From a virus (Duplodnaviria > Heunggongvirae > Uroviricota > Caudoviricetes): DNA of 9,116 bases. The position numbers and the translations under genes were made by a program. The notes under the pieces were generated by a model. The model ran no database searches. It was not told where the DNA came from and was given only the letters and a program-made list of their open reading frames with translations. Location of the stretch: positions 1 through 9,116 of the IMG/VR virus record IMGVR_UViG_2698536397_000007; one strand, written 5' to 3'. Shown here one piece after another: positions 8,076-8,816 of the stretch (its first letter is position 1; every line of letters starts with the position of its first letter).

Positions 8076-8316
8076 AAATGTCTCACAATTCAGACGGTTG
8101 ACAGTTGTCTGTTTTGCGGGGCGTTTGTTAAAAGGAACAGGCATGGTGAATCCCCCTGTGCGGAGGGGCATATCAGCGACAGGTGGTTGGTTATATCCCT
8201 TATCCTTTCTGTGCGGGTTCAGGTGCTGATACTGAACTCACCGGGAGGCACCCGGCACCATGCGCATGATGATACAGATACGCGGCTTTAGCCCCTCTCC
8301 GGAGGGGCTTTTTAAT
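8076..8316 (+). repeat. Tandem structured repeat, unit 1
   Basis: Shares with unit 2 the blocks CTCACAATTCAG (8082-8093), TTGACA (8098-8103), TTTGTTAAAA, GCATGGTGAATCCCCCTGTGCGGAGGGGCATA (hairpin CCCCT/AGGGG), ACTCACCGGGAGGCACCCGGCACCATGC (hairpin CCGGG/CCCGG, 8241-8255) and a 3' terminator hairpin. Confidence 0.6.
8290..8314 (+). terminator. Intrinsic terminator closing repeat unit 1
   Basis: Stem AGCCCCTC (8290-8297) / GAGGGGCT (8302-8309), loop TCCG, followed by a T-run (8309-8313). Confidence 0.65.
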
Positions 8317-8338
8317 GAGGGGAAGGCACCGGGCAGTG

Positions 8339-8586
8339 AAATGTTAAATCACTCACAATTCAGTCAGTTGACGGTTGCCTGTCTGGCTGAGCATTTGTTA
8401 AAAAAATCCTGCATGATGAATCCCCCTGAGCGGAGGGGCATAATGACAGATGTTTGGTTGCGTATTGTATAGGCAAGTTGCGGATTCTGTCTGGTCATTG
8501 CAGAATTCACCGGGAGGCACCCGGCATCATGCTGTATACAGAGATTAGGCATATATCCAGGCTCCTCATCGCAGGAGCCTTTTTAC
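8339..8586 (+). repeat. Tandem structured repeat, unit 2
   Basis: Period about 270 bp from unit 1: CTCACAATTCAG (8352-8363), TTGACG (8368-8373), TTTGTTAAAAAAA, GCATGATGAATCCCCCTGAGCGGAGGGGCATA, ATTCACCGGGAGGCACCCGGCATCATGC (8510-8524) and a terminator hairpin with a different sequence but the same structure. Confidence 0.6.
8559..8585 (+). terminator. Intrinsic terminator closing repeat unit 2
   Basis: Stem AGGCTCCT (8559-8566) / AGGAGCCT (8573-8580), loop CATCGC, followed by TTTT. Confidence 0.65.
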
Positions 8587-8590
8587 ATGC

Positions 8591-8619
8591 AAAAAAAGCC
8601 CGCGCCGGGAGACGCGGGC
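8591..8619 (-). terminator. Candidate minus-strand intrinsic terminator (possibly half of a bidirectional pair)
   Basis: Stem GCCCGCG (8598-8604) / CGCGGGC (8613-8619) with an 8-nt loop, preceded on the plus strand by AAAAAAA (8591-8597), which is a T-run on the minus strand. No obvious minus-strand gene feeds into it. Confidence 0.4.
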
Positions 8620-8816
8620 AGCAAGGAATAAACAACAAAACGTGAAGTAATCAATTTTTCAGCTGGCGAATAATACCCGACAGTAATCACTCTGCGCAAC
8701 TGCGCGGCCTTTTTCGTATTGCGGGCTGTAGTCTTCCTTCTGTCATTGTCCTGTAACTTCCGGACTTCAGCCCGCCCCTTATCTGACTCACAACATTATC
8801 CCGGCCGGGAGGATTC

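Follow-up and report, generated by a model that had tools for sequence, protein, structure and literature searches.

A neighbouring pair of STnc100 prophage sRNA copies in a lambdoid late region

The two direct repeats near the end of the 9,116-nt stretch of viral DNA analysed here (the window; positions 1 to 9,116 of IMG/VR record IMGVR_UViG_2698536397_000007) are two neighbouring copies of the prophage sRNA family STnc100 (Rfam RF02076), a family that has been described previously, and the finding as such is already known. In an Rfam search, unit 1 matched the model at 130.7 bits (8112-8320, model positions 1-206 of 206, E = 2.8e-29) and unit 2 at 183 bits (8382-8590, model positions 1-206 of 206, E = 1.1e-42), E-values that place the match far beyond chance. 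Both scores exceed the curated gathering score of 47 bits, both units have the conserved structure of the family, and both are located in the late region of an Enterobacteriaceae prophage. A covariance model of our own, R1, scored 191.6 bits on unit 1 and 167.6 bits on unit 2. When Rfam was searched over 7950-9000 at permissive E-values (up to 5), only STnc100 and chance-level matches were returned, with no riboswitch, ribozyme, protein-binding family, AsxR, or AgvB among them; a tRNA/tmRNA scan of the window found none, and the window carries neither an stx gene nor tRNA genes. The repeats fall within 8069-8608 and have a period of 270 bp, with 82% identity between 8069-8172 and 8339-8442, a 93% match between 8234-8263 and 8503-8532, and 81% when the full units are aligned. 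The original prediction of two tandem direct repeats, each producing a structured noncoding RNA of ~170 nt, is thereby confirmed in its layout and supported in its reading of the product, and the covariance search supplies the name that it had not given. All of the elements it listed (TTGAC boxes, -35 and -10 elements, two hairpins, and terminators) are present at both units, but the interval it assigned to the repeats, which ran to 8620, was too long, as the final ~30 bases (8591-8620) belong to a convergent minus-strand RNA and lie outside the repeat.

The two units share the same minimum-free-energy architecture, in which a five-helix 5' domain is followed by a 26-nt linker and an intrinsic terminator:

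8141-8316, plus strand: STnc100 copy 1 RNA, predicted, ~176 nt (Rfam, R1 model, fold, terminator scan)
8141-8148/8256-8263, 8153-8157/8164-8168, and 8176-8214, plus strand: helices P1 and P2 and the variable P3 of copy 1 (fold)
8215-8222/8232-8239 and 8241-8245/8251-8255, plus strand: helices P4 and P5 of copy 1 (fold)
8264-8289, 8290-8309, and 8310-8314, plus strand: linker, terminator, and U-tract of copy 1 (fold, terminator scan)
8411-8586, plus strand: STnc100 copy 2 RNA, predicted, ~176 nt (Rfam, R1 model, fold)
8411-8418/8525-8532 and 8423-8427/8434-8438, plus strand: helices P1 and P2 of copy 2 (fold)
8482-8489/8501-8508 and 8510-8514/8520-8524, plus strand: helices P4 and P5 of copy 2 (fold)
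8533-8558 and 8559-8580, plus strand: linker and terminator of copy 2, followed by the U-tract (fold)

P2 is the hairpin CCCCU/AGGGG (8153-8168 in unit 1 and 8423-8438 in unit 2), P5 is the hairpin CCGGG-AGGCA-CCCGG (8241-8255 and 8510-8524), and each terminator is directly followed by T5. The 8-bp long-range helix that closes the 5' domain (P1) and the 8-bp hairpin at 8215-8239 and 8482-8508 were both absent from the original description.

In the comparison of the two units, both pairing partners are changed at three helix positions, of which P1 has one and P4 two, and covariation across 51 homologs supports the fold. In this set, drawn from at least 13 enterobacterial genera and aligned by fitting to the covariance model, 92.3% of cells are paired compared with 39-56% with slid partners, 278 cells carry double changes compared with 22-34 with slid partners, and compensatory changes occur in 32 of the 37 pairs. 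The pattern used to search genome contigs for homologs, GTGAATCCCCC-N6-8-GGGGC, was too loose: most of its 120 loci had matched by chance in unrelated phyla, and the analysis could use only those from enterobacteria. The elements conserved over the genera (at least 13) are J1/2, the P2 and P5 hairpins with their loops, and the inner P1 pairs, with a conserved core of the 5' domain that reads GGUGAAUCC.CCU..GCGG.GGGGC and ACCGGGAGGCACCCGGCA; P1, P3, and P4 covary and differ in length among genera, and the linker shows no sequence conservation at all across genera. The original prediction had argued for selection on RNA structure from the two terminators. Their sequences do differ, but they do not form a stepwise compensatory series, and the argument is weakened because each belongs to a different 3' module and these modules reassort from copy to copy. 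What truly supports the structure is the covariation seen in the 5' domain and terminator across the 51 homologs, which is also what the earlier call for folding and covariation analysis had looked for.

Each unit is preceded by promoter-like elements with the same geometry and by a CRP-like site:

8105-8134, plus strand: unit 1 putative promoter, -35 TTGTCT at 8105-8110, 18-bp spacer, -10 TAAAAG at 8129-8134 (sequence)
8098-8103, plus strand: unit 1 extra box TTGACA (sequence)
8072-8087: unit 1 CRP-like site TTTTAAATGTCTCACA, 8/10 to TGTGA-N6-TCACA, centred at -61.5 from the predicted start
8375-8404, plus strand: unit 2 putative promoter, -35 TTGCCT at 8375-8380, 18-bp spacer, -10 TAAAAA at 8399-8404 (sequence)
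8368-8373, plus strand: unit 2 extra box TTGACG (sequence)
8342-8357: unit 2 CRP-like site TGTTAAATCACTCACA, 9/10 to TGTGA-N6-TCACA, centred at -61.5 from the predicted start

The spacers contain a TG at 8126-8127 (-15/-14) in unit 1 and at 8396-8397 in unit 2, which makes the promoters extended -10 types. A simple sigma-70 consensus scan reported neither of them because the -10 hexamers lack a T at position 6, ending in G or A; the lack of this conserved T is also a point against our main model. The starts at 8141 and 8411 are assigned from the 5' end of the homolog PasD1, which was set by RNA-seq (NC_011601, position 1060260), and the 3' ends from the terminators. The PasD1 promoter has matching geometry (TTGACT-18-TAAAAA-7-G), and its start, the G of GCAUGGUGAAU, corresponds to G8141 and G8411. 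The ends that had been proposed from the sequence, near 8140/8410 and 8314/8585, agree with those assigned here (8141/8411 and ~8316/8586), and in other genera -10-like elements are found 6-9 nt ahead of helix P1. A second start farther upstream, near 8070-8095 and 8340-8365, may exist, because the Northern sizes of some O157 homologs (222-247 nt) exceed the predicted 158-177 nt. The best match to the CRP consensus is centred exactly at -61.5 in 10 of the 10 E. coli STnc100-type copies checked, and only 18 of the ~18,200 16-mers in the window score at least 8/10 to this consensus; the left half-site of the CRP-like sites lacks the key G. The E. coli copies share this putative CRP site, and cAMP-CRP bound at -61.5 possibly helps both promoters.

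The two units carry different 3' modules, which reassort among copies. The linker of unit 2 is the same 3' module type as that of EcOnc27 of Stx2 phages, and the EcOnc27 Northern probe is complementary to the 933W/Sp5 linker that corresponds to it, whereas the middle region of unit 1 is of the EcOnc05/06 type. The window shows cleanly that this reassortment occurs by recombination within the conserved P5/P1 stretch and that STnc100 genes can sit in tandem; the junction seen here recurs in 18 of the 5,426 complete E. coli genomes. In EDL933, by contrast, 11 STnc100 copies are transcribed, one of them (STnc100_4) confirmed by Northern blot, and all are >27 kb apart, compared with 270 bp here.

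The genomic context is the late region of a lambdoid prophage, with RusA, a Q-like DUF1133 gene, a frameshifted methylase, the two RNAs, and the start of a DUF1737/NanS-p-like esterase. In 933W, Sakai Sp4, and Sp5, STnc100 is found at the equivalent place, so that the moron-like position, as in Stx phages, that had been proposed for the repeats holds, and AsxR is also found at this position in 933W. Facing the repeats is a candidate third RNA:

8591-8788, minus strand: convergent partner RNA, EcOnc08/21/42-like, with an uncertain 5' end (terminator and promoter scan)
8619-8598 and 8597-8591, minus strand: terminator hairpin and U-tract of the convergent RNA (terminator scan)

With a promoter-like site at 8823-8795 on the minus strand, transcription would begin near 8788 and run antisense to the esterase 5' UTR. 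Sakai Sp4, where EcOnc08 and EcOnc21 were mapped as Hfq-CRAC peaks, has a closely matching counterpart of 8591-8830; the EcOnc08/21/42 Northern probe also has its match in this region, and an EPEC sRNA found by RIL-seq has a 3' end identical to that of the convergent RNA. An identity as an AsxR/AgvB anti-sRNA was rejected, as there was no RF02703 or RF02702 match at E-values up to 5 and the homology is instead to EcOnc08/21/42. An identity as HnrS (EcOnc10-12) was not confirmed; EcOnc10-12 are separate entries in the table of Tree et al., at other Sakai coordinates. The convergent RNA, the tandem arrangement, the reassortment of 3' modules, the CRP-like site, and the 5'-domain arrays of Pantoea described below are less well documented than the family itself.

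Several relatives of the two units have been studied experimentally. The O157 family members are EcOnc27/sRNA103, EcOnc05, and EcOnc06, with PasD/EcOnc13 as a distant relative, and the O157 and EPEC homologs EcOnc27/sRNA103, EcOnc05, and EcOnc13/PasD are Hfq-bound and seen on Northern blots. EcOnc27 gives bands of ~235/247 nt, of which the 247-nt form is destabilised without hfq. Hfq-CRAC peaks are also found at EcOnc05, EcOnc06, and EcOnc13 (Tree et al.), EcOnc06 too being seen by Northern blot, and the homolog peaks fall in the middle and 3' part of the RNA, the mapping of the EcOnc27 peak being approximate, as its coordinates in Tree 2014 are ~135 nt off NC_002695.2 (an offset deduced from AsxR). 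The RIL-seq chimeras of PasD1 lie in its last ~50 nt, and the MEME E-values of the published PasD seed motifs, 2.4e3 and 6.5, are not significant. Overexpression of sRNA103 raises the fimZ and espA transcripts. None of the family members has a validated direct target or an established mechanism, and the function of the family is poorly defined.

Given this background, we think it fairly probable that the two units, with their differing 3' modules, are each transcribed on their own into an sRNA that depends on Hfq and acts in trans, and that their terminators also insulate the late genes. By analogy with the homologs, each gene would be read from a sigma-70 promoter of the extended -10 type, possibly aided by cAMP-CRP at -61.5, with transcription most likely running from G8141 and G8411 to the intrinsic terminators near 8316 and 8586. 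Each RNA would consist of a strongly conserved 5' domain of ~123 nt (P1-P5), in which P1 would sequester the 5' end, and a poorly conserved 3' module made up of the 26-nt single-stranded linker and a terminator hairpin with its U-tail, where Hfq binding and RIL-seq chimeras would be expected to fall, as in the homologs. The RNAs most likely base-pair in trans, in an Hfq-dependent manner, with host and prophage mRNAs, and as the two copies carry different 3' modules, different sets of targets are expected. In a lysogen, both terminators and the convergent terminator at 8598-8619 probably block read-through from the methylase region into the esterase and lysis genes, and during lytic growth, Q-modified RNA polymerase would override them. 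This insulating role, like CRP control and the different target sets, is one that we ourselves propose. A point that counts against the base-pairing model is that the seed of an sRNA is normally its best-conserved part, and here the conserved part is the 5' domain and the linker is unconserved.

This conservation lends weight to the possibility that the 5' domain (P1-P5) is an autonomous protein- or ligand-binding module, such as a decoy, sponge, or aptamer, with the linker and terminator merely ending the transcript and recruiting Hfq. Conservation over the at least 13 genera is confined to the elements of this domain named above; in several genomes, it occurs alone or nearly directly before a U-run (loci L054, L044, L074, L016, and L069), and on a Pantoea plasmid, it is repeated two to three times in a row before a single terminator. 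However, no partner or ligand is known, the Rfam search at E-values up to 5 revealed no likeness to riboswitch, ribozyme, or protein-binding families, the Hfq crosslinks and RIL-seq chimeras of the homologs concentrate on the 3' part, and a stable 5' domain might simply shield the RNA from 5'-end-dependent decay, so that we regard this explanation as unlikely. If it were true, temperate phages of the Enterobacterales would carry the 5'-domain element single, in tandem, or concatenated, with the 3' linker and terminator as exchangeable accessories, and STnc100/PasD would be a new class of phage structured RNA rather than conventional seed-pairing sRNAs.

The remaining explanations would tie the repeats to their neighbours or to a protein product. 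It is very unlikely that the units are Q-responsive PR' late-promoter leaders of the lambda 6S/StxS kind, leaving the RNA as a by-product of the control of antitermination. In favour of such a role are the location of the module, with its promoter and terminator, between a Q-like gene and the lysis genes, the three tandem copies directly upstream of the lysozyme-Rz genes in Superficieibacter, the Pantoea arrays downstream of a DUF1133 gene, and the precedent of StxS that such leaders can turn into Hfq-bound sRNAs. Yet the Q-like gene ends at 6411, and the units are 1.7 kb away from it, beyond a hairpin with T7 (~6484-6505), a 106-aa ORF, a terminator at 6812-6829, and the methylase; we rejected this as the main reading since the promoter does not immediately follow Q and the first terminator after Q is not the unit's own. 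In 933W and Sakai Sp5, moreover, the annotated PR'/qut/StxS lies upstream of stx and STnc100 downstream, and the family is found with several unrelated Q types. The early transcribed sequence also lacks a conserved -10-like pause element and covaries as P1 (GCAUGG, UUGUGG, AUGCGG); the CATGGT/CATGAT at +2 to +7 contains the key A and T, yet this stretch is unconserved in other genera. A cis-acting, riboswitch-like leader or attenuator of the downstream NanS-p-type esterase gene would resemble the units in its helix-closed structured domain, short linker, and terminator, and many Stx and lambdoid phages have the RNA immediately before the esterase gene, but we hold this to be extremely unlikely: the convergent RNA gene and its terminator stand between unit 2 and the esterase, as they do in Sp4 and 933W, PasD1 precedes a holin gene without an esterase, the downstream genes differ in other genera, and no conserved alternative (antiterminator) pairing was found. 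Finally, we give next to no credence to one or two small proteins translated from the ATG behind the GGGAGG hairpin, even though this SD-like sequence precedes the ATG by 9 nt in unit 1 and by 8 nt in unit 2 and some EDL933 STnc100 copies have ribosome footprints (coverage value up to 3.2). Coverage is low at most EDL933 copies, the ATG is part of helix P1 and is replaced by CACCACA or CACCGCA in other genera, and the coding idea was rejected on the grounds that the ORFs of 70 and 38 aa share no sequence, run through the terminators, and, like every ORF of the region, have no Pfam match, in line with the earlier argument that short ORFs unconserved between the copies make a peptide improbable.

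Among the known systems most similar to the window, EcOnc27/sRNA103 (933W, Sakai Sp5) and EcOnc05/06 (Sakai Sp4/Sp17) have the same five-helix 5' domain, promoter geometry, and terminator, and STnc100 of O157 lies between the Q/stx/tRNA region and the esterase with a convergent minus-strand sRNA, as here. PasD1/PasD2 (EPEC E2348/69; EcOnc13 in Sakai Sp3) have a homologous fold, which our own covariance model was needed to detect (~37 bits, with boundaries equal to the published PasD1 coordinates), as the Rfam STnc100 model gave no match to the PasD loci at threshold. PasD shares with the window units the 5' start GCAUGGUGAAUCC, P2, P4, the closing P1, an AU-rich linker, and a terminator, is located like STnc100 in a prophage late region, and is Hfq-dependent, but it differs in its degenerate P5 (GCGGGAGGCGCC), consensus -35, linker, and absence of a CRP-like site. 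The likeness to the PasD subgroup is thus seen only at the level of the covariance model, and the UGUGAG seed is absent from both window linkers. StxS and lambda 6S are likewise short terminated transcripts of the lambdoid late region, and StxS is an Hfq-bound by-product with a trans-acting function; unlike the units, StxS is transcribed from PR' just behind Q, and processing shortens it to 74 nt. No sequence or Rfam relation links the units to StxS/6S; in Stx phages, STnc100 and StxS occur together, with stx lying between them. OmrA/OmrB and PrrF1/PrrF2 are comparable as pairs of paralogous sRNA genes that lie side by side, have separate promoters and terminators, and combine a conserved part with one that differs. 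In OmrA/B, the 5' seed and 3' end are conserved and the middle has diverged, whereas in the units conservation lies in the structured 5' domain, and the 3' linker and terminator are exchanged as a module.

Although the window alone adds little, STnc100 is among the most abundant prophage RNAs in pathogenic E. coli. One of the EDL933 copies lies directly behind stx2, and variants in the copy at this position count among the strongest predictors of haemolytic uraemic syndrome in genomic data. The variants of the 933W promoter that are linked to the syndrome include a +90 T/C change and a +103 T deletion. The comparison across genera suggests that it is the conserved 5' domain, more than the linker, that selection preserves, and this gives a testable lead for the function of EcOnc27/sRNA103 or PasD.

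The interval 8069-8608 consists of two direct repeats with a period of 270 bp (82% match between 8069-8172 and 8339-8442, 93% between 8234-8263 and 8503-8532, and 81% identity over the full units). In an Rfam scan at the gathering threshold, both are full-length members of the STnc100 family (RF02076, gathering score 47), unit 1 at 8112-8320 with 130.7 bits and unit 2 at 8382-8590 with 183 bits, which supplies the named sRNA that the original prediction could not. The two structured RNA modules proposed there are supported, and the sequence and scans place every listed element where it was predicted. 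A peptide-coding reading is unlikely, as the two ATG-initiated ORFs 3' of the GGGAGG hairpin, of 70 and 38 aa, bear no relation to one another, as had been noted, and extend through the terminators, and no ORF of the repeat region has a Pfam match. ARAGORN found no tRNA in the window.

The window is the late region of a lambdoid prophage, with the following gene order taken from Pfam matches.

First in order, before RusA: DUF1627, Ead/Ea22, DUF551, DUF968
5477-5842: RusA
5839-6411: DUF1133 protein with a Phage_antitermQ match
6976-8015: N6/N4 methylase, split over two frames
From 8817, after both RNAs: DUF1737 start of a NanS-p-type esterase

The nearest complete E. coli genomes are ~94% identical across 6900-9116. 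In phage 933W, STnc100 lies 75 nt 3' of stx2B and its 3' end abuts the convergent anti-sRNA AsxR; because this copy is directly 3' of stx2B and upstream of the esterase gene, the suggestion that the units occupy a position typical of Stx phages was correct. The units are a known family at a known position, and in this respect are already known. The methylase frames overlap (6976-7437 and 7317-8015), and the annotation of a homologue gives a frameshift in one E. coli genome and an intact gene in a second. Beside this gene, ATTGCAGAATTAACCGGG at 8034-8051 is a 94% match to the unit 2 P4/P5 junction (8497-8514) and could be a remnant of a third unit or a chance match. Directly 3' of the Q-like DUF1133 gene are a CCACC-GGAA-GGTGG hairpin with T7 (about 6484-6505), a 106-aa ORF with only weak winged-helix matches, and a terminator at 6812-6829. 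The stretch 6411-6830 is a candidate for the true late promoter and terminator; a promoter scan found no sigma-70 promoter in it.

Folded from G8141 and G8411, both units adopt an identical architecture.

P1: 8-bp helix, nt 1-8 with nt 116-123
P2: CCCCU/AGGGG
P3: variable
P4: 8 bp
P5: CCGGG/CCCGG, loop AGGCA
Linker: 26 nt unpaired, followed by the terminator

P2, P5, and the terminator correspond to the hairpins originally predicted, while P1 and P4 had been missed. Three pairs, one in P1 and two in P4, are changed on both sides between the units with pairing kept. A covariance model built from seven E. coli copies recovered 51 copies in enterobacterial loci drawn from a motif scan with one genome per species (Klebsiella, Superficieibacter, Pluralibacter, Pantoea, Atlantibacter, Cedecea, Enterobacter, Trabulsiella, Salmonella diarizonae, Raoultella, Kosakonia, Citrobacter, and Silvania), as well as the distant EPEC relatives PasD1 and PasD2 with their published boundaries. 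In the resulting alignment, which is fitted to the model and favours structure, albeit with a large margin, 92.3% of cells are paired versus 39-56% with slid partners, 278 cells versus 22-34 carry double changes, and 32 of the 37 pairs show compensatory change. Conserved sequence (≥90% identity, 43 copies) is limited to GGUGAAUCC.CCU..GCGG.GGGGC and ACCGGGAGGCACCCGGCA; neither linker nor terminator keeps its sequence among these copies. The unit 1 terminator hairpin (CCCCTCTCCGGAGGGGC, 8292-8308) shares 88% identity with the P2 hairpins at 8153-8169 and 8423-8439, and the type B terminator of unit 2 has no such likeness.

RNA-seq places PasD1 at NC_011601 1060260-1060432, starting with the G of GCAUGGUGAAU; leading up to this G are TTGACT, an 18-nt spacer, TAAAAA, and a further 7 nt. 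The units share this geometry.

Unit 1 promoter (+): -35 TTGTCT, 18-bp spacer with TG at -15/-14, -10 TAAAAG, then G8141
Unit 2 promoter (+): -35 TTGCCT, 18-bp spacer with TG at -15/-14, -10 TAAAAA, then G8411

A -10-like hexamer is also present in other genera, 6-9 nt 5' of the first base of the fold, and promoter sequences beyond it are unrelated. CRP-like sites at 8072-8087 (8/10) and 8342-8357 (9/10 versus TGTGA-N6-TCACA) accompany the units; in all ten E. coli STnc100-type copies checked, the centre of such a site lies at exactly -61.5 relative to the inferred start, a position kept although the left half-site and spacer vary, and PasD-type copies lack the site. HUS has been reported to be strongly predicted by variants +90 and +103 behind stx2B, within the STnc100 annotation. 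These are a T/C change and a T deletion, respectively, and +87 to +104 corresponds to about 2790-2807 of our 933W locus. By our own mapping, which may be a base or two out, +104 is the first base of the RNA, and the variants would lie outside the RNA body, in the STnc100 promoter (its extended -10 region and its discriminator).

The exact junction of units 1 and 2 occurs in 18 of 5,426 complete E. coli genomes; other tandem pairs were found in one Stx1c phage and one deer isolate, and none of the 11 copies in EDL933 adjoins another. The single copy of E. coli FHI_NMBU_10 (L002 3705-3914) matches unit 1 at every position as far as the P5/P1 stretch (145/145) and unit 2 at every position from there onward (65/65), which points to the expected product of unequal crossing-over between units, or its reverse. 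Seven copies compared show a few types each of middle region, linker, and terminator, in varying combinations. The window terminators, which do differ in sequence as first noted, are therefore exchanged modules rather than a compensatory series. In Superficieibacter electus, three full-length, individually terminated copies lie in tandem (L109 6327-7001, minus strand) directly upstream of phage lysozyme and Rz genes. Plasmid pAPP145_2 of Pantoea sp. App145 has two minus-strand arrays (L116 896-1987 and L083 3103-4485), each with at least six STnc100-like 5' domains; several lack their own terminator, giving two or three structured domains per transcript, and one array lies ~575 nt 3' of a DUF1133 (Q-like) gene and is preceded by a pair of short promoter-terminator modules.

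Tree et al. (2014) reported that eight Sakai prophages carry pairs of convergent, Hfq-bound sRNAs at the 'moron' site 3' of PR'; their Northern probes correspond to the linker of the Sp5 STnc100 copy (EcOnc27) and to the middle region of unit 1's type (EcOnc05 and EcOnc06), and their Table S2 gives sizes of 177-247 nt and a 247-nt EcOnc27 form destabilised without hfq. In EDL933, all 11 copies are transcribed, one confirmed by Northern; overexpression of sRNA103 (= EcOnc27) raises fimZ and espA transcripts, probably indirectly, and STEC outer membrane vesicles contain STnc100. A 2026 preprint concludes that the EPEC RIL-seq sRNAs PasD1 and PasD2 descend from the same ancestor as STnc100; tandem copies, promoters, and a link to the late promoter are absent from its account.

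The best-supported reading is that units 1 and 2 would be two independently transcribed, Hfq-dependent sRNAs. Hfq-CRAC peaks in homologs cover the middle and 3' part of the RNA (nt 107-157 of 172 in the distant relative EcOnc13, nt 33-141 of 158 in EcOnc05, and nt 96-175 in EcOnc27 after a 135-nt offset correction inferred from AsxR), and PasD1 RIL-seq chimeras lie within approximately the last 50 nt; a weak point is that some homolog Northern sizes exceed the predicted lengths. A PR'-tR' leader resembling StxS or lambda 6S RNA was an attractive alternative, as the Superficieibacter copies directly precede lysis genes and the Pantoea arrays follow a DUF1133 gene. However, the window units are 1.7 kb from the Q-like gene with other terminators between, Stx phages have their known PR'/StxS on the opposite side of stx, the family co-occurs with several Q types, and covariation in the early transcribed region follows an RNA helix, with no -10-like pause element kept. 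Since a convergent RNA gene separates the units from the esterase gene and no esterase follows PasD1, a cis-leader role is unlikely. It remains interesting to regard the conserved 5' domain as the functional unit itself, given its concatenation two or three times before a single terminator on pAPP145_2 and the several genomes that have it without a 3' module.

The convergent RNA gene (8591-8788, minus strand; terminator hairpin 8619-8598) abuts unit 2 and is present in 751 of 5,426 complete E. coli genomes, with no Rfam family. The segment 8591-8830 aligns closely with Sakai Sp4 at the site of Hfq-CRAC peaks EcOnc08 and EcOnc21 (~271 nt by Northern), and the 3' end is that of the EPEC RIL-seq sRNA E2348C_1409.E2348C_1408.IGR.

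The sRNA reading has further weak points: no direct target has been validated in the literature for any STnc100/PasD family member, the published PasD seed motifs are statistically non-significant, and the supposed seed is the least conserved part. Since the linkers of the two units differ, that of unit 2 being of the EcOnc27 type, the sRNAs would be expected to have different target sets. Together with the convergent terminator, the two unit terminators would keep transcripts in the lysogen from extending into the esterase and lysis genes, and the convergent RNA, if it starts near 8788, would be antisense to the esterase 5' UTR.
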